A stretch of 21,849 nucleotides of DNA from the NCBI GenBank assembly GCA_035577525.1, contig DATLVL010000009.1, positions 1 through 21,849 of the forward strand, in the 5' to 3' direction. The notes beneath the pieces are model-generated. The model saw nothing but the letters and a program-made list of their open reading frames with translations. It made no database searches and was not told where the DNA came from. Of the stretch, positions 1 through 8,352 are shown piece by piece. Source of the stretch: Gemmatimonadales bacterium. GTDB lineage: Bacteria > Gemmatimonadota > Gemmatimonadetes > Gemmatimonadales > GWC2-71-9. A program made the position numbers and the translations under genes. How positions within the stretch are numbered: position 1 is the first letter of the stretch; each line of letters begins with the position of its first letter.

Positions 1-401
1 AGAGCTTCCCCGCCGCGGCAAGGCACGACGGCGATGACTGCTTCGAGCGGCAGCGGCTGCGTGACGAGGTCCGGGCGCTCCTTGCTCTCCCCTTTCAGGG
101 CGCTGCCGAGTACGCGGGCGATCGCCACGCTCAGGAACGACGACGCGACGTACGGCCGGTCATTGACGTACTGCTGCAGTAGGCCGCCATCGCCGGCAGG
201 GCCCTGGCGGCCGCGCACGAGGCCGACCCCGTCCACGTCGAGCAGCAACGCGGCGGTGCAACGGTCGGGCGTCGCCTCCGGATAGAAGACGTGCGCCCGA
301 CCGAAGGCGAGGTCGAAACTCTGCGCCCGGGCCGGGTTCTTGTGCAGCAGGTACCCCAGATCCGTCGCCGGGCGCAGCGTCGTCGTCAGCGCGAGCAACA
401 T
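1..401 (-). CDS. hen1: Hen1-like RNA 3'-terminal ribose 2'-O-methyltransferase, N-terminal part only (partial CDS; the C-terminus lies beyond the left edge)
   Basis: ATG at 401..399. Hand translation of the minus strand gives MLLALTTTLRPATDLGYLLHKNPARAQSFDLAFGRAHVFYPEATPDRCTAALLLDVDGVGLVRGRQGPAGDGGLLQQYVNDRPYVASSFLSVAIARVLGSALKGE... From memory this matches the conserved N-terminal domain of bacterial Hen1 from the Pnkp/Hen1 RNA-repair cassette (MLLTxTxT, GYLLHKNP, FGxAHVFYPE, RCTAALLLD, YVNDRPYVASSFLSVAI). The ORF is open to the window edge and is not in the ORF track because it has no stop in the window. Confidence 0.6.
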   Translation of the reverse strand, partial: MLLALTTTLRPATDLGYLLHKNPARAQSFDLAFGRAHVFYPEATPDRCTAALLLDVDGVGLVRGRQGPAGDGGLLQQYVNDRPYVASSFLSVAIARVLGSALKGESKERPDLVTQPLPLEAVIAVVPCRGGEA

Positions 402-402
402 G

Positions 403-720
403 TCATGCGTCCTCGTCCCAATTCGGATCCGCCTTGCGCTCGGCGGTGCGCGCGCGGTGGAAGGCGCGCGACAACGCCCGCTGATCGGCGGTGCACTGAT
501 AGATGTACTCGATGAGACGCGCCCGTGCGCGCACCCGCGCCCCCGTGAGGTCGACGAACATGACCCACTCGGGCACCGGTGATTCACTGAGCGACGCCTC
601 GATCGCTTGCGCCATCTCGCGGCTCACGGCCCACCACTCGATGTGCGTCACCACGAGGAAGTAGTCGACCGGCAACTCGGGCCGACCCGCCTGCTCGTAC
701 CGCTCTTTTGTGATCTTCAT
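403..720 (-). CDS. hypothetical small protein (105 aa), tightly coupled upstream of hen1
   Basis: Within ORF 403..753(-). The internal ATG at 720..718 gives MKITKERYEQAGRPELPVDYFLVVTHIEWWAV...; the upstream extension is Arg-rich and starts with TTG. The stop TGA (405..403) lies 1 nt before the hen1 ATG (401..399), implying co-translation and an operon. I recognise no family. Confidence 0.55.
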   Translation of the reverse strand: MKITKERYEQAGRPELPVDYFLVVTHIEWWAVSREMAQAIEASLSESPVPEWVMFVDLTGARVRARARLIEYIYQCTADQRALSRAFHRARTAERKADPNWDEDA

Positions 721-748
721 GGTCCGCCGGCCGCGGACTGCGCGGCCC

Positions 749-795
749 CTCAAAAGAAATCGCCCCGTCCGGCGACGCGCGCGGACGGGGCGATC
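749..795 (-). terminator. strong intrinsic terminator on the minus strand (13-bp GC stem plus U-tract), 28 nt upstream of the 403..720 start codon
   Basis: Plus-strand 760..772 (tcgccccgtccg) pairs with 782..794 (cggacggggcgat), leaving a 9-10 nt loop gcgacgcgc. On the minus strand the hairpin is followed by TTTCTTTTG (plus-strand caaaagaaa at 751..759). Confidence 0.6.
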
Positions 796-812
796 AGTCG
801 CGGACTAGCCGT

Positions 813-938
813 CTAGATCGGTCCCGCTCGCCCCGCGTTGTCGGGCGTAAATGTGCACGGCGACGCCGCGCGTGGCCGCGAACGCGCCACCCGCACATCG
901 CCTGCTGCCTGTCGGCCATGCATCGCAAGGACAGTCAT
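813..938 (-). CDS. candidate leader peptide (uORF, 41 aa, Arg-rich) in the hen1-operon leader
   Basis: Minus-strand ATG at 938..936 is preceded by GAGGT with a 6-nt spacer (aggtttGAGGTaatcccATG). Translation is MTVLAMHGRQAAGDVRVARSRPRAASPCTFTPDNAGRAGPI, with stop TAG at 815..813. The last codons (gcg ggg cga, 836..828) are complementary to the 5' arm of the downstream terminator. Short ORFs in GC-rich DNA can be chance; this call rests on the SD and on context. Confidence 0.3.
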   Translation of the reverse strand: MTVLAMHGRQAAGDVRVARSRPRAASPCTFTPDNAGRAGPI

Positions 939-2849: not shown

Positions 2850-4997
2850 TTACGCGCCCCCGCGAATGACCTCGACACGCAGCTCCACCCACCCGTCGAC
2901 CTGGTAGTACTCGGCCCGCAGCCGGTGTCGTCCGCCGGCGATCGGCACCTCGTCGACCTGCGACTCGTGCGGCGTCCAGGCATCGACCCTAAGTGTGTCG
3001 TCGACCCAAACGCGCACCGCGTCGTCGCTGATGGTGCGGAGCCGGAAGGACCCGGGCGGCAGGTCGACGGAGCCGGTGGCGTCGAGCGACCAGTGCTCCT
3101 GCGGAAGGTGGGCCATCGATCGAGGCGGCCGGTACCACATGAAATCGAGCCGCGGCGCCAGCCCCGAATCGATCGGTTGCGCGAACCGGTTGGCGCTGTC
3201 GCTCCAGGTGAAGAAGCGCATGCGCCAATCGATCGGCGGCTCGAATCGGCCATAGGAGAATCGATAGGGCTGCCCCACGGCGCGCGCGACCCCTCGCGGG
3301 GACATGGTTGCCGCGCCGCGATACTCGAGCGTGACGCTCCAGTCGCCCAGTGAATCCCTCGCCGGCGTGACTACGAGCGTGTCGCCGACTCGACCGCTTG
3401 TTCGTGAGAGCGCGGCAACGCCGCGACGTGACACCACACGCCAGCGACCCGCCGGGCCGAGGACCGCGAGCCGCAACGGCACGGCGCGCGTCGAGTCCTC
3501 TGCCACCGGCCACAGTTTCGGACTACGCCAATCATAGGGGCCCCATTCATCTACTATGATGGCCGACCGGTCCCGCCGCGACATGGCCGACACGGGGTAA
3601 CCGGACAGCGTCGGCAAGCCGGTCGCCGGCTCGGCCGTCGGCAGCGATGTGTCGCGCGTCGTCACATTGTCGCTGATGTCGACCCGGGCCGTATCCCGCA
3701 GCACCGCGAGCGAGTCGACGTCGAGCCAGTGGTTGGCAGTGAAGCCGAGTCCCGAAGTCTGTCGCGCGCGCAGCGCGACACGGTTCCGCACAAACACATT
3801 GAAGGAGATCCGATAATCGCGGCTGCGCGTGTCGTGGTGTTTGGGGTAGCCCCAGTCCGAAGGCTCGATCGAGTCGGCCCACAGCTGGATCGCCGTCGAG
3901 TCGTGGGCAAAGCGATTTGCCTCGATGAGGTTGTCCTGCCCGTGCTCGATCGCGATGCCGGTCCGGTTGCCGCGGAAATCGTTGCCGGCGATGTGCGACG
4001 AGAAGCTGTACCCGCCCCACACACCGTATTCGCTTCCCCAGGCGCGGTTGTTGACGATGTCGTTGCGACTGAACGTTGCTTCGATGCCATTGGCCGTCGC
4101 GTAGCTGACGTCGTTTCCATAAATCAGGTTGTCGTTCGCGCCACCCGTCCCTGAATCCATCGTCGTCTGCCCTGCCCACAGAAACACGCCGTCGCCGCCG
4201 TGCGTGAGCGAGTTATCGGCGATGATGTTGTGGCAGCTCTGCTCGTAGATCAGCAAGTCCGCCGAATCCTGGCCGCGCGTGTACCAGCGATGGCTGTAGC
4301 CGCGCACGTCGTAGTCGATGCGGTTGTGGAGGATCGAATCGTCGGAAGAGCGATACAGTCCCACGCCGAGGCCGGAATTGAACGAGAAGTCGTTGTCGCG
4401 AATCGCGACCCCGTCGCTCCGCACGACGAGCAGCGCGTTCATCCCCTGGCGCACGGTGTTGCCGCGCACCGCTCCCCCCGTCACGTCCGCCAGGTAGATC
4501 GCCGCGCCGTAGCGCAACCATTCATCGTGCTCGTTGTGGTGAAACGTCAACCAATCGACGAGGCTCTCGTGCTCCACCAGCGAGTAGAGCCGCGGCTTCC
4601 AGTTGTAGCTCAGGTCATTGTCGACAAGCGTGAGGCCGTGGGTGCCGCGCGCCAGGATGCCGACCTTGTAGCCGCGCACGCGAGCGCCCTGGAGCCGGAC
4701 GTTCGTGCCGCCAAGGACGATGATCGCGGTGTCTCGCGCCTGGTCAGGATCGGCCTCGGGTGAAATCCGCTGTAACGTCGCACCGCGGAAATCGACGCTA
4801 ATGCCGTCGCCTTTCACGGTAATCGGTGCGGTCAGCCGGTAGATCCGCGGAACGACACGGACCGAGCGCGTGATCACCATCCCCGACTGCAGCTCGATCG
4901 GGGCCTGTGCGAGGATCAGGACCAGAGGCAACACGGACAGGCCTACTGTACGGTCAGCTCCGCGTGCAGATCGGCGGTGGACGATTCTCCCACCCAC
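2850..4997 (-). CDS. right-handed parallel beta-helix repeat protein with a C-terminal PA14-like domain (putative polysaccharide-active enzyme), secreted
   Basis: 715-aa ORF. The N-terminus has a signal-like RRSARGADRTVGLSVLPLVLILAQA. The middle has many NxxDN, IxDN and GxxxxGN beta-helix repeat signatures (VDNDLSYN, IRDNDFSFN, IADNSLTHGGDG, IYGNDV, IEANRF). The C-terminus DDAVRVWVDDTLRVDAWTP...YYQVDGWVELRVEV looks like PA14. The GTG start at 4997 overlaps the GH3 gene by 55 nt, so the start is uncertain (alternatives are GTG 4934 or TTG 4931). Confidence 0.7.
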   Translation of the reverse strand: MGGRIVHRRSARGADRTVGLSVLPLVLILAQAPIELQSGMVITRSVRVVPRIYRLTAPITVKGDGISVDFRGATLQRISPEADPDQARDTAIIVLGGTNVRLQGARVRGYKVGILARGTHGLTLVDNDLSYNWKPRLYSLVEHESLVDWLTFHHNEHDEWLRYGAAIYLADVTGGAVRGNTVRQGMNALLVVRSDGVAIRDNDFSFNSGLGVGLYRSSDDSILHNRIDYDVRGYSHRWYTRGQDSADLLIYEQSCHNIIADNSLTHGGDGVFLWAGQTTMDSGTGGANDNLIYGNDVSYATANGIEATFSRNDIVNNRAWGSEYGVWGGYSFSSHIAGNDFRGNRTGIAIEHGQDNLIEANRFAHDSTAIQLWADSIEPSDWGYPKHHDTRSRDYRISFNVFVRNRVALRARQTSGLGFTANHWLDVDSLAVLRDTARVDISDNVTTRDTSLPTAEPATGLPTLSGYPVSAMSRRDRSAIIVDEWGPYDWRSPKLWPVAEDSTRAVPLRLAVLGPAGRWRVVSRRGVAALSRTSGRVGDTLVVTPARDSLGDWSVTLEYRGAATMSPRGVARAVGQPYRFSYGRFEPPIDWRMRFFTWSDSANRFAQPIDSGLAPRLDFMWYRPPRSMAHLPQEHWSLDATGSVDLPPGSFRLRTISDDAVRVWVDDTLRVDAWTPHESQVDEVPIAGGRHRLRAEYYQVDGWVELRVEVIRGGA

Positions 4998-7225
4998 ACG
5001 TCGAACACACTCGGCTCGACCCCCCAGCGCTTCGTCTGCGGGCTCCAGAACTGCAGCTCGTTCTTGCCCAGGGAAAAACGCAGCGTCTGCGTCTCGCCCG
5101 GTTTGAGCGTCACGCGGCGGAAGCCTTCGAGCTGCCGCACCGGGCGGGACGCCGAGCCGGAACGCTGATGGACATAGAGCTGCACGACGGCATCGCCTGC
5201 TACCGAGCCCGTGTTGGCGACGTTCACGCTCACCGCGACCGAGTCCCCTGCCTTCATCCTGGTCTTCGAGAGATGCAGGCTATCAAAGCGAAACGTCGTG
5301 TAGCTGAGTCCGTACCCGAACGGATAGAGCGGCTTGCTGGTAATGTCCCAGTACCGCGACGTGAACCGCGGATCGTTCTCCGGCATTTGCGTGAGATTGT
5401 GATTGTAGTAGAGCGGCTCCTGCCCCGCGGCGCGCGGCCAGCTCACTGGCAGCTTGCCGCCGGGATTCACGTCGCCGAACAGTACGTCGGCGATCGCATT
5501 GCCCCCCTCCACGCCGGGGAACCAGGCTTCGAGGATCGCCGCCGCGTGCACCGCCAGCCAGTTGATCTCGAGCGGCCGGCCGTTCTCGAGCACGACCACG
5601 ACCGGCTTGCCCGCCGCCCCTGCCGCCTCGACCATCTGCTCCTGAATCCCTGGGAGATCGAGCGTCCCGCGCGAGGCCCCCTCGCCGCTCATGAAGGCGG
5701 GCTCGCCGACGACGGCGATGACCAGATCGGCTGAATCCGCCGCGGCTCTGGCTTTGGCAATCCAATCGGCGACCTCCGCCGCGCTCGGCGGCGGCGTGGG
5801 CGCATGCCCCAGGAACGCGTCAAAGAATGAAGGAAACGTCTTCGACAGCGCCGGCCCCGGCACATAGGAGATCCGCGCCTGCGGGCCTAACCGATCCTTC
5901 AAAGCAGCGAGGACCGTGACCGCCGGGGCGTCCGTCCCCTGCCTGAAGACCCCAGCCGGAGTGGGACCTCCCGTCATGTCCGCGGGCGAGTCGGCGAGGC
6001 CGCCGATGACCGCGACGTTCTTGACCGCGCTGGACAACGGCAACGCGTGATTGTCGTTCTTCAAGAGCACCATCGACCGGCTGCCGAGCCTTCGGTCGAG
6101 CGCCCGACCCTCTGGCGTCACATCGCTGACGATCTCGGCTTCGTTCACGTAGGGATGCTCGAACAGCCCGATCTGGAGCTTGACCAGGAGGATCGGGAGC
6201 ACCGCCGAGTCGATTTTGGCGCGCGAGACTCTACCGCTCGCGACCAGCGCCGCCAGATGATCGCGGAACGTCCGGGTGGCCATGTCCATGCCGGCGCCCG
6301 CAGTGATGCCCTTGTAGGCCGCATCGGTGGAATCGGCGGCGAAGCCGTGCACCACGAGGCTCGCGATGGCCATCGCGTCGGACGTGACGAATCCATGAAA
6401 TCCCCATTCACGGCGCAGCACGTCGGTCAAAAGCCAGTGATTGCCGCCCGCGGGCACATCGTTCAGATCCATGTAGGCCGACATGACACTCCCCACGCCC
6501 TGCTGCACGGCGGCGTGGAACGGGACCAGATACACGTTCTCCATCAGCTCTTCGGGAACGTAGGAGGCATCGTAGTCGCGGCCGCCCTCGGCGGCCCCGT
6601 ATCCCGCGAAGTGTTTGACGCATGCGACGACGCTCGCTGGGCCCAGCGTGGCTCCCTGGAATCCGCGCACCTGCGCCCGCGCCATGGCGGCACCGAGGTA
6701 GGGGTCTTCGCCAGCGCCCTCCTGGATCCTCCCCCAGCGGGCGTCGCGCGCAACGTCGACCATCGGCGTGAACGTCCAGCGGATTCCGGTGCTCCTCGCC
6801 TCGCCCGCCGCGAAGGCCTGCGCCTGCTCTTCAACAGTGGGATCCCACGACGACGCCATTCCGAGGGGAATCGGAAACAGCGTGCGGTAGCCATGGATCA
6901 CATCGAGCCCGAAGAGCAGCGGGATGTGCAGTCGACTCTTCTCGACGGCGAGATGCTGCATCCGGTTCATCTCTTTCGGGTTCGCGAGCCAGAGGATGGC
7001 GCCGACGCCGCCGTGGATGATGTCCGAGTCGGAAGCCCCGGCGACGAAGCCGCCGAGGCCAGGGCCCGCGGACAGATAGAGCTGACCGATCTTCTCTTCG
7101 AGCGTCATCCGGGCGAGGAGAGCCCGCGCACGGCGCGCCGCGTCGGCGCTCGCGCCCGCGGCCTGAGCGGAGGCACGAGCGACAATGATCACCATGAGGG
7201 CAAGAACGAGTTGATGACGACGCAT
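4943..7225 (-). CDS. glycoside hydrolase family 3 beta-glucosidase (BglX-like, periplasmic)
   Basis: ATG at 7225..7223 with a GAGGAG SD 5 nt upstream. The signal peptide is MRRHQLVLALMVIIVARASAQA. GH3 hallmarks are present: RMTLEEKIGQL, KHFAGYGAAEGGRDY, the GFVTSDAMAI nucleophile region, and a C-terminal FnIII-like tail. The ORF track's start at 7246 is a TTG upstream extension. Confidence 0.85.
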   Translation of the reverse strand: MRRHQLVLALMVIIVARASAQAAGASADAARRARALLARMTLEEKIGQLYLSAGPGLGGFVAGASDSDIIHGGVGAILWLANPKEMNRMQHLAVEKSRLHIPLLFGLDVIHGYRTLFPIPLGMASSWDPTVEEQAQAFAAGEARSTGIRWTFTPMVDVARDARWGRIQEGAGEDPYLGAAMARAQVRGFQGATLGPASVVACVKHFAGYGAAEGGRDYDASYVPEELMENVYLVPFHAAVQQGVGSVMSAYMDLNDVPAGGNHWLLTDVLRREWGFHGFVTSDAMAIASLVVHGFAADSTDAAYKGITAGAGMDMATRTFRDHLAALVASGRVSRAKIDSAVLPILLVKLQIGLFEHPYVNEAEIVSDVTPEGRALDRRLGSRSMVLLKNDNHALPLSSAVKNVAVIGGLADSPADMTGGPTPAGVFRQGTDAPAVTVLAALKDRLGPQARISYVPGPALSKTFPSFFDAFLGHAPTPPPSAAEVADWIAKARAAADSADLVIAVVGEPAFMSGEGASRGTLDLPGIQEQMVEAAGAAGKPVVVVLENGRPLEINWLAVHAAAILEAWFPGVEGGNAIADVLFGDVNPGGKLPVSWPRAAGQEPLYYNHNLTQMPENDPRFTSRYWDITSKPLYPFGYGLSYTTFRFDSLHLSKTRMKAGDSVAVSVNVANTGSVAGDAVVQLYVHQRSGSASRPVRQLEGFRRVTLKPGETQTLRFSLGKNELQFWSPQTKRWGVEPSVFDVWVGESSTADLHAELTVQ

Positions 7226-7264
7226 GGCTTCTCCTCGGCTGTTCAAGGTGAGGCCACGATTATA

Positions 7265-7648
7265 TCAGGAAGACGTACAGGCGGGCACGCCCTCCTTGGT
7301 GGCAGGCGGCACGGACGTTGAGCCCATGAACACCGCGCAGGTGCGGGTCGTCGACACATGGCCGACGGTAGCGGTCCAGCCGTCGCCGGTGAGGGTGATC
7401 GTCGGTCCGGTCACCCCGACGGACGGGCTCCACAGCGATGCCGGAATGCTCGTGGCGTAGCTGCCGCTGTCGATTTTCCAGGACTCCTGCTGCGTCACCA
7501 GGTTGCGCAGGTCGGATTCCATGGCCGCGATCAACGCCTTATTGCGGGTCGAGCCGAGCTTCGGGATGACGATCGTGACGAGCAGGCCGATGATCGCCAT
7601 GACGATGATCAGCTCGACCAGCGTGAACCCGCGGGCGACGGCGCGCAT
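7265..7648 (-). CDS. type IV pilin / pseudopilin-like protein with a prepilin N-terminal cleavage/methylation domain
   Basis: ATG at 7648..7646 with an AAGGAG SD 6 nt upstream. MRAVARG|FTLVELIIVMAIIGLLVTIVIP is a class III leader with G at -1 and E at +5, followed by a hydrophobic helix. Two C-terminal Cys (TCAV...PACTSS) are typical of a pilin disulfide loop. The 96-aa N-terminal extension in ORF 7265..7936 was rejected. Confidence 0.8.
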   Translation of the reverse strand: MRAVARGFTLVELIIVMAIIGLLVTIVIPKLGSTRNKALIAAMESDLRNLVTQQESWKIDSGSYATSIPASLWSPSVGVTGPTITLTGDGWTATVGHVSTTRTCAVFMGSTSVPPATKEGVPACTSS

Positions 7649-8352
7649 CACATTCTCCTTCTGTTGCGTTCTCCCTCGACGGTGGCATATCCGAGCAGCA
7701 TCGCCGCGGTATACCGGAACGTCCGCTCCCGGAACGCCACGAAGCACACGGCGGCCCCCAACACGCTGAGCAGGAAGAGCTGGGCGCGGATGATCGGGAA
7801 CGGGCCGATCGTGCCCTGGCTGTCGAGGGCCCGCACCGGGTCCCACAGCGGGAGGATCGGAGCGAAGGCGGCGGTGGTGAGGATGAAGCCGCGTGCCAGC
7901 CGATATTGGTCGCGACGCGACTGTACCGCCTCCCACACGGCGGGCGCGCGCGTCAACAGCTCGTATTCCAGGGCCTGCAGGAACGCGCCCGACTTGCGCA
8001 GTCGATCGGCGCCCTCGGCCTTGATGACCTCGGCGTAGCTCGGGCCGCCGGGGAACGTCTGCAGGTCACCCAGGTCGGCGAAGCGGTGCTGCACCGTAGG
8101 ACTCACGAGCACCTTCATGGCCCAGCGCTCCTTGGGGCCATGGAACACACTGCGGGAAATCGTGTGCACCACGACGCCGAGGGCCGCCGAGGCCGTAAAC
8201 AGGAGCGCGATCCACACCACGGCCTGGGTGGGACCCCATTGGGGCATGGACAGGTTGAACGTGGGGGATGCCACATCGAGGACCAGAGCCACCCACACCA
8301 TGGCGTAGAACCCATGCACCAGGGTGGTCCCGCCAAGCGTAAACGGGCGCAT
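7648..8352 (-). CDS. hypothetical integral membrane protein (234 aa), translationally coupled to the pilin gene
   Basis: ATG at 8352..8350 with GGGAGG 8 nt upstream (the ORF track's TTG at 8391 is an extension). There are hydrophobic segments at both ends (LVHGFYAMVWVALVL, AVVWIALLFTASAALGVVV, GFILTTAAFAPILPL, LFLLSVLGAAVCFVAF). The stop TGA overlaps the pilin ATG (ATGA at 7648). I recognise no family. Confidence 0.6.
   Translation of the reverse strand: MRPFTLGGTTLVHGFYAMVWVALVLDVASPTFNLSMPQWGPTQAVVWIALLFTASAALGVVVHTISRSVFHGPKERWAMKVLVSPTVQHRFADLGDLQTFPGGPSYAEVIKAEGADRLRKSGAFLQALEYELLTRAPAVWEAVQSRRDQYRLARGFILTTAAFAPILPLWDPVRALDSQGTIGPFPIIRAQLFLLSVLGAAVCFVAFRERTFRYTAAMLLGYATVEGERNRRRM

Follow-up and report, generated by a model that had tools for sequence, protein, structure and literature searches.

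The window analysed here is a stretch of 21,849 nucleotides (nt) from a Gemmatimonadales bacterium of the phylum Gemmatimonadota (GenBank assembly GCA_035577525.1, contig DATLVL010000009.1), whose left end carries on the minus strand a small gene directly upstream of the RNA-repair gene hen1. This small gene, here called S, and a hairpin in the leader at the operon head are the constant parts of the loci in which the S family occurs, and the enzymes encoded beside them are interchangeable and often lost. Judged by its gene neighbourhoods, S is linked to RNA repair in general and not to Hen1 in particular. The explanation favoured here, although only tentatively, is that S binds RNA and, by acting on the leader, serves as regulator or sensor for an RNA-repair operon of variable content. 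This reading is considered the most likely because S and the hairpin are constant, the regulator RtcR is absent from these loci, the predicted surface of S is basic and its predicted fold is a small barrel.

The S gene and its junction with hen1

The features of the window that concern S and hen1 are the following.

403..720, minus strand: S, a protein-coding gene of 105 amino acids (aa) (stop codon included), supported by its open reading frame (ORF) and translation, its homologues and the ratio of nonsynonymous to synonymous substitution rates (dN/dS)
399..414, minus strand: S/hen1 junction, with GAGGA at 414-410, TGA at 405-403, C at 402 and ATG at 401-399
1..401, minus strand: 5' part of hen1, first 133 codons, matching Pfam Hen1_L and TIGR04074 and continuing past the left window edge

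S starts with the ATG at 720-718 and ends with the TGA at 405-403, its protein begins MKITKERYEQAGRPELPVDYFLVV, and it is the first cistron of the operon. The first-pass annotation had described a 105-aa ORF lying 1 nt upstream of hen1, and the coordinates, the translation and the TGA-C-ATG junction with its 1-nt gap were confirmed. A Shine-Dalgarno-like GAGGA is located inside the last S codons, 8 nt 5' of the hen1 ATG, and the junction is laid out as a predicted translational-coupling arrangement. The tight coupling proposed in that annotation holds beyond the window, as the same stop/start spacing recurs across the window's clade and the Hen1 match begins at the same offset after S in nearly all loci of this clade. 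A longer reading of S from a TTG start at 753 (116 aa) was rejected; the upstream DNA is conserved as leader, but it is out of frame in relatives.

The downstream gene was correctly called hen1. The 133 aa visible in the window match Pfam Hen1_L (PF12623), the Hen1 N-terminal family, over residues 1-132 with an E-value of 3.3e-56 (190.6 bits against a cutoff of 23), and they match TIGR04074 bacter_Hen1 with an E-value of 3.3e-57, the partial score of 194 bits lying below the full-length cutoff of 340. Only these first 133 hen1 codons are shown by the window, and truncated hen1 alleles occur in the clade. In the sister contig L002 (loci are given by their L numbers), whose S is 96% identical and whose Hen1 N-terminus is 99% identical to those of the window, hen1 is complete with 466 aa and its end overlaps the start of pnkp. 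The full-length TIGR04074 cutoff, considered together with the C-terminal 2'-O-methyltransferase domain, is passed by Hen1 of the relatives L002 and L006 (734 bits). The pnkp gene lies in the same operon as hen1 in L002, L006, L037, L044 and L062, and is deleted in many other relatives.

S as a protein family

Homologues of S were recovered by a word-indexed search (43 homologues, 52-96% identity) and by a HMMER scan of 1.84 billion representatives, which gave 273 clusters at 50% identity, with E-values under 1e-10 for 179 of these. The great majority of the homologues, nearly without exception, are stand-alone proteins of ~100 aa. The source names are all metagenome-assembled genomes (MAGs) of Gemmatimonadota (Gemmatimonadales, Longimicrobiales), as are 25 of 25 genome hits, and S is single-copy in each of these 25 genomes. 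Pairwise comparisons of S between members of the window's clade gave dN/dS values of 0.07-0.21, at dS values reaching 1.0. With this conservation and coding signal, the small ORF, which the first-pass annotation had marked for such a check, is a real protein-coding gene.

The same annotation could place the protein in no family, and neither could the profile searches. The S protein of the window has no significant match in Pfam, NCBIfam, PADLOC or the PDB sequences, and nothing significant was found in the profile libraries when 29 and 101 family members were scanned one by one. The sole NCBIfam match of the window protein, PRTRC_F (E 0.041, 12.8 bits against a cutoff of 58.4), was treated as chance, as was the only match to solved structures by sequence, IleRS at E 1.5. 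The best recurrent Pfam hits among the 101 members are sub-threshold (DUF7853 in 7, DUF7810 in 3, DUF3107 in 3 and DUF903 in 2). A phage origin of S was rejected, with no homologue on IMG/VR viral contigs and no PADLOC match. S founds an unannotated, phylum-restricted family of ~100-aa proteins. In one S copy (L022 7971-8300) the match begins only at residue ~40 and the C-terminal extension is a different one; this copy has no repair gene near it and is probably truncated or decaying.

RNA-repair genes around S

For the neighbourhood survey, 100 S loci (85 distinct, 745 kb) were collected from genomes, metagenomes and exact-protein look-ups. Neighbours were scored by tblastn with locally derived queries, and Pfam and NCBIfam searches bore out what they are. 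In 62 of the 85 distinct S loci, a gene for RNA repair, or what is left of one, is present within 1.3 kb and on the same strand; among the remaining loci, 12 are too short for judgement and 11 are informative negatives. The repair neighbours were identified as follows.

Hen1: 734 bits (TIGR04074)
Pnkp: 1441 bits (TIGR04075)
RtcB: PF01139
Rsr: TROVE and vWA_Ro60
RlaP: PF10127, 9e-21

The arrangements of these genes differ between the clades of S.

Window's clade: leader, S, hen1, pnkp, rlaP
Clade at ~50% identity: tRNA array (at least 13 genes), rtcB, tRNA, HNH, S, YrlA-like RNA, rsr
Clade at ~40-47% identity: hairpin, small ORF X, S, rtcB, or S, rtcB; gaps of 2-100 nt
Further variants: rsr, S, rtcB; within the hen1 clade also rtcB, S
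Three loci (L020, L024, L095): a GGDEF-EAL gene in the place of rtcB, synteny otherwise conserved
Two distant Longimicrobiales-like members: a DUF6847 neighbour, no repair genes

Homologues of S thus recur beside hen1 and pnkp, as the first reading of the sequence had led one to expect, and the family adjoins rtcB, rsr or rlaP just as often. These kinds of neighbour are mechanistically unrelated to one another and intermixed on the S tree, which fits a factor that is indifferent to the enzyme. Neither a homologue of RtcR (tblastn with Escherichia coli RtcR) nor one of RtcA was found in the 745 kb of S loci.

In the window's clade, pnkp is followed by a gene encoding the RlaP nucleotidyltransferase (RNA-ligase-associated Pol-beta family), and the full operon is S-hen1-pnkp-rlaP. 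In L006, rlaP lies after pnkp at 6685-7653, and further rlaP genes lie at L009 8352-9290 and L050 6347-7303. The tRNA-array type of locus is seen in L015 (4442-5872, 5919-7136, 7179-7250, 8401-8519, with rsr after 8800) and similarly in L013, L014 and L016, where the array of at least 13 tRNA genes is directly upstream of rtcB, followed by tRNA-Arg, an HNH endonuclease gene, S, a Y-like RNA and rsr (Ro60). The Y-like RNA beside rsr is tRNA-like and carries a 55-nt insert in the anticodon arm, which is the YrlA-type architecture. A locus of the L015 type is a complete RNA-repair and quality-control cluster.

Several other elements were observed near S. A PAS-GGDEF-EAL gene stands directly after S at the syntenic position of rtcB in L020 (8464-11295), L024 (8424-11234) and L095, and a DUF6847 gene adjoins S in two independent contigs (L031 6355-6825 and 7MicA0dJ 2473-2943). 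ORF X, a conserved extra ORF that in the S-rtcB clade separates the hairpin from S, encodes 49-57 aa with the pattern MLDIRLLLLETPEDRYEPS...AERAV..LL and has a strong Shine-Dalgarno sequence (L023 7825-7974, L019 ~7826-7975, L024 7811-7984, and also L021, L025, L026 and L020). Its N-terminus resembles the N-terminal segment of full-length distant S proteins (MINRLKxLxEEPDERPP), a segment that the S copies of the same clade lack. Blocks of inverted heptamer repeats (TAGGGAC / GTCCCTA type) occur upstream of the S-rtcB promoter region (L027 7591-7700, L028 317-385, L029 7567-7655), and short tandem repeats (GTCGTAC / GTCGCAG type) occur between the hairpin and S (L027 7965-8010).

Loss of hen1-pnkp and retention of S

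The near-identical relatives L001 and L003 retain just the first ~37 nt of hen1 after S, and convergent genes of unrelated kinds come next (L001 10316-10360 against window positions 360-402 at the hen1 stub); this is a deletion and not an insertion in the lineage of the window. Across the window's clade, tblastn recovered at least 10 deletion states of hen1-pnkp with S intact, most of them with distinct end-points. What is left after S is listed below.

hen1 codons 1-29: L008
hen1 codons 1-41: L086, L087
hen1 codons 1-44, then rlaP: L039-L043, L064
hen1 codons 1-68: L079
hen1 codons 1-183: L046-L048, L051, L053
hen1 1-43 fused to pnkp 670-849: L058, L071
pnkp 790-849, then rlaP: L035, L036
pnkp 806-849, then rlaP: L099
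rlaP directly: L009, L049, L050, L052, L063, L066-L068, L072

In those deletion lineages whose S was read through in frame it is intact, and its dN/dS is 0.07-0.08 in the one deletion lineage measured (L009 against L006 and L007). After the loss of hen1-pnkp, rlaP usually still follows S, and in L001/L003, L005, L031 and L032 there is S with no repair enzyme nearby. Strict co-occurrence of S with hen1/pnkp was not found in the surveyed loci, where S also stands with rtcB, rsr, rlaP or GGDEF-EAL, or alone. In soil Gemmatimonadales, hen1-pnkp is evolutionarily unstable and has been lost or truncated on many independent occasions, with the small gene kept.

These losses bear on the proposal of the first-pass annotation that S is a dedicated, stoichiometric extra component of the Pnkp/Hen1 system, that is, a third subunit or assembly factor of the Hen1-Pnkp complex of this clade. 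Such a role would agree with the 1-nt stop-start gap, the internal Shine-Dalgarno-like motif and the conservation of the S-hen1 junction across the clade, but the repeated loss of hen1-pnkp with S intact and the pairing of the same family with rtcB, rsr and rlaP speak against it, and the canonical complex is a two-protein heterotetramer that needs no further protein for RNA repair in vitro (PMC4411300). The repeated deletions and the self-sufficiency of this heterotetramer together rule out S as an obligate Hen1-Pnkp subunit, and a dedicated subunit or assembly factor is considered very improbable.

Another explanation of the same pattern is hitch-hiking, in which the job of S is unrelated to repair (a lineage-specific stress or housekeeping function) and its promoter and leader, being well regulated, are a preferred landing site or an ancestral neighbour of mobile repair cassettes. 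It would account for S outliving the cassettes, for syntenic flanks with cargo that changes within clades (L023 against L024, L006 against L009), and for the distant S members that lack repair genes and twice have the DUF6847 neighbour. However, nearly all of the variable neighbours are drawn from five RNA-repair families, tRNA arrays and the Y-like RNA, across several S clades, and they occur in several gene orders (S-hen1, S-rtcB, rtcB-S, rsr-S-rtcB and rtcB-HNH-S-rsr), a specificity that a neutral hotspot would hardly give. Hitch-hiking is accordingly rated as improbable.

The structured leader upstream of S

The region directly upstream of S in the window contains the following features.

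721..903, minus strand: leader, ~190 nt, non-coding and structured (alignment of relatives, covariance model R1)
752..795, minus strand: core hairpin and U-tract, with a 14-bp GC-rich stem GAUCGCCCCGUCCG / CGGACGGGGCGAUU followed by UUCUUUU (terminator scan)
729..747, minus strand: second hairpin, GGCCGCG-cagtc-CGCGGCC, immediately before the S start region
722..727 with 800-805, minus strand: possible outer helix, GCGGAC with GUCCGC (RNAalifold consensus, pair counts)

The leader is ~85-90% identical (by eye) among relatives whose synonymous sites are near saturation. Covariance model R1 matches the window at 715-903 with 171 bits and also matches 49 further loci (including L006 2225-2419 and L007 4993-5187). 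Among 36 distinct leader sequences, 95% of cells are paired, and double changes occur at 13 pairs compared with 4.6 in shuffles and 5-8 in slid controls, as counted on an alignment fitted to the model. No Rfam family matches the window's leader at the gathering threshold, the best E-value being 0.16 for an unrelated small RNA (sRNA).

The core hairpin is a candidate attenuator and has the appearance of an intrinsic terminator. For the second hairpin, compensatory changes are seen (GACCGCC/GGCGGUC, GGCUGCC/GGCAGC), including a change from GC to AU at one pair in seven distinct sequences. The outer helix (helix 6) is 96% paired with little variation and is weakly supported; it is predicted to enclose both hairpins, and it could possibly occlude the ribosome-binding region at the S start. 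In predicted folds of nascent transcripts that extend up to the 5' arm of the hairpin, this arm pairs with a conserved upstream segment, GCGCGAACGGGAUCGAC, and these folds suggest two mutually exclusive leader conformations, an attenuator-like bistability. A leader peptide was considered and rejected, since the 17-codon ORF of the window has no conserved counterpart in L006 (by eye).

The covariance model and a simple pattern both place a hairpin of the form GAUCGCCCC...GGGGCGAUC with a U-tract at the operon head in every clade. It precedes S by ~70 nt in the window's clade and by 200-430 nt in the S-rtcB clade. In the tRNA-array clade it stands ahead of the array or of rtcB, at a distance of 1.5-4.2 kb from S, and two distant loci that have no repair genes carry it as well.

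In all other clades the same hairpin sequence, GAUCGCCCCACCUG...CAGGUGGGGCGAUC followed by GUUU, stands at the operon head, and it was located at these positions.

L004 7122-7159
L013 4627-4666
L014 4814-4853
L015 4223-4262
L016 3714-3753
L019 7656-7737
L023 7763-7800
L031 ~5795-5835
L032 ~3815-3855

The stem is compensatory across clades (GUCCG/CGGAC against ACCUG/CAGGU or CGGGU). A palindromic DNA operator was regarded as the less likely nature of the element, given that the loop or spacer of 8-12 nt and the U.G pairs in the stem favour RNA. Two more short conserved motifs, GGCCGGCGG and ACGCGACUCCC, usually follow the hairpin. L004 has two tandem copies of a 30-nt unit that includes ACGCGACTCCCG.

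Predicted structure of S

An AlphaFold2 model of the S monomer was computed from the 101-sequence alignment with a pLDDT of 90.5, replacing a 25-sequence model with a pLDDT of 79. The order of elements is b1 b2 a1 b3 b4 b5 followed by a long helix.

Residues 1-18: variable N-terminus
Residues 20-24 and 29-32: strands b1 and b2
Residues 34-44: helix a1
Residues 52-56, 62-66 and 72-76: strands b3, b4 and b5
Residues 78-97: long helix
Residues 98-105: short acidic tail

Conserved positions are D19, F21, W30, W52, F55, D57, G60, R62, R64, R66, Q75, R81, R85, R89 and E94. Three of them form an arginine ladder on strand b4 (R62, R64, R66), and three form an i/i+4/i+8 arginine stripe on the basic helix (R81, R85, R89). 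The core and the helix of S are basic, with mean net charges of +1.3 and +1.7, and the tail is acidic at -2.6. In most clades the acidic tail contains a conserved Trp (DWDEDE), and the S copies beside rtcB have neither the N-terminal segment nor the tail Trp.

The model assigns S to the class of small Sm/SH3-like beta-barrels, a predicted fold class that is compatible with nucleic-acid binding and by itself assigns no function. S has Sm/Hfq-like fold neighbours, and the layout that defines the Sm/Hfq group, in which five bent strands with Sm1/Sm2 motifs come after an N-terminal helix, was not found in S. The same b-b-a-b-b-b order was described in a 2015 preprint in which DUF3107, a family of unknown function, was proposed as permuted Sm/Hfq-like (10.1101/026195). 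The comparison of S with DUF3107 (PF11305) gave a Foldseek E-value of 0.2 and a best Pfam E-value of 0.046, both far below significance, and S differs from DUF3107 / Rv3208A (TB9.4, Actinobacteria) by its added long basic helix and acidic tail. In addition, neither a WYL-domain profile match nor the fusion to HTH/WCX that marks the WYL sensors (PafBC, BrxR, CapW, DriD) was found in S.

The small size of S, its acidic tail with a conserved aromatic residue and the RNA-damage context would also be in line with an antitoxin or immunity-like inhibitor of a ribonuclease toxin, the acidic Trp tail plugging the nuclease as in the MazE type. Yet no recurrent toxin-like partner gene stands beside S in any locus, S has no PADLOC or Pfam antitoxin match and no profile match to a DNA-binding domain of the type II antitoxin families, and the tail Trp is absent in the rtcB-linked clade, so that there is very little likelihood of S being an antitoxin.

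Possible roles of S

We infer that S binds nucleic acid, that the leader is its target and that its role is regulatory. As a regulator, S would sense RNA damage on behalf of an RNA-damage-response operon and would act on the leader attenuator, with read-through and/or start-codon access being controlled; it would then fill the role that RtcR has for rtcBA in Proteobacteria. In a more elaborate version, which is possible and held with less confidence, S and the leader form a phylum-specific control module for the damage response, in which the Sm-like protein reads damaged RNA or its own hairpin, switches the bistable attenuator and drives interchangeable cargo (Hen1-Pnkp-RlaP, RtcB, Rsr/YrlA and tRNA arrays), as a non-homologous counterpart of RtcR.

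Several points weigh against a regulator that acts on the leader. In the tRNA-array/rtcB/rsr loci, S is located mid-operon and far from the hairpin. The hairpin could be a plain conserved terminator or part of an sRNA, and in group B a -35-like TTGACA comes after it and not before it, an order also noted for the tRNA-array clade. The covariation of the leader was counted on a model-fitted alignment of related sequences. Furthermore, a subunit that works together with the enzyme would be expected just as much to show such close coupling to hen1 or rtcB (gaps of 1-100 nt).

The main alternative, somewhat less probable than a regulator, is that S is a shared RNA-binding adaptor or chaperone that holds or presents broken tRNA or rRNA ends to the adjacent enzyme, and the leader is regulated by something else. 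In its logic such an adaptor would be similar to Archease for RtcB or to the scaffolds formed by Y RNA and Ro. The translational coupling or tight spacing of S to hen1 and rtcB, and its mid-operon position between rtcB and the YrlA-like RNA and rsr in the tRNA-array loci, would suit an adaptor, as would the modelled Arg-rich surface and the Sm/Hfq-like fold neighbours; the acidic Trp tail could dock onto partner proteins. S also remains paired with rlaP after the loss of hen1-pnkp, and RlaP repairs damaged RNA 3' ends (PMC12776372). Against an adaptor, S persists in L001/L003, L005, L031 and L032 with no repair enzyme nearby and stands with GGDEF-EAL in L020, L024 and L095, and the Pnkp-Hen1 heterotetramer manages in vitro with its two proteins (PMC4411300). 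Moreover, a docking motif common to all S proteins is lacking, since the rtcB-linked S has neither the N-terminal segment nor the tail Trp. The regulator or sensor reading is kept as the preferred one.

Comparison with known systems

To our knowledge, RNA-damage sensing and the induction of Hen1-Pnkp and RtcB outside Proteobacteria are essentially unknown. As the only constant parts of loci that carry five repair families, S and the leader offer a testable pair for damage sensing, regulation and substrate delivery. If S does bind RNA ends or its own leader, it would represent a new class of RNA-repair regulator or adaptor, and there would be reason to add one family for the protein and one for the RNA to the databases. 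The enzymes of the S loci belong to known families and are unremarkable within them; the novelty lies in the unannotated S family, the shared unannotated structured leader, and the hen1-pnkp-rlaP arrangement with its frequent decay. The searchable literature ties neither Gemmatimonadota nor such a small protein to Hen1/Pnkp, the main comparative survey (Burroughs & Aravind 2016) lying outside that search.

The closest enzymatic parallel is the Pnkp-Hen1 operon of Anabaena variabilis and Clostridium thermocellum. As in that operon, a hen1 with the Pnkp-associating N-terminal domain is present, here directly downstream of S, and Hen1 and Pnkp are encoded in one operon in relatives of the window. 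The canonical operon consists of two genes for a self-sufficient heterotetramer, whose in-vivo substrates are still unknown (PMC4411300), whereas the S operon adds S as first cistron, the structured leader and a trailing rlaP, and in S loci hen1-pnkp is frequently deleted with S remaining.

The rtcBA and rsr-yrlBA-rtcBA operons of Proteobacteria, which are regulated by RtcR (PMC7790460), share with the S loci RtcB, Rsr and a tRNA-like Y RNA, together with a dedicated control element at the operon head. RtcR consists of CARF, sigma-54 AAA+ and HTH domains, none of which is shared by S, and neither RtcR nor RtcA is present in the 100 S loci, where what stays constant is a 100-aa barrel protein together with an RNA-like hairpin leader. 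Archease, the cofactor of RtcB, is likewise a small protein encoded in an operon with RtcB (PMC3973293). In contrast to Archease, S has a different predicted fold, is also tied to Hen1-Pnkp, RlaP and Rsr and occurs without RtcB, and the 101 S members gave no Pfam Archease match at E <= 1.

With regard to the leader, the arrangement recalls attenuation by proteins of the TRAP, PyrR and Hfq type, in that the gene of a small, probably RNA-binding protein is preceded by a leader in which an upstream helix competes with a terminator-like hairpin; the likeness goes no further than analogy, and these proteins have no homology to S. Finally, the S cluster with an array of at least 13 tRNA genes directly upstream of rtcB resembles the long tRNA arrays of cyanobacteria. 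Translational stress in Anabaena induces the tRNA arrays together with rtcB and hen1-pnkP (PMC8421152). The promoters of the cyanobacterial regulon carry 9-nt direct repeats, and no S homologue or hairpin leader has been described there.

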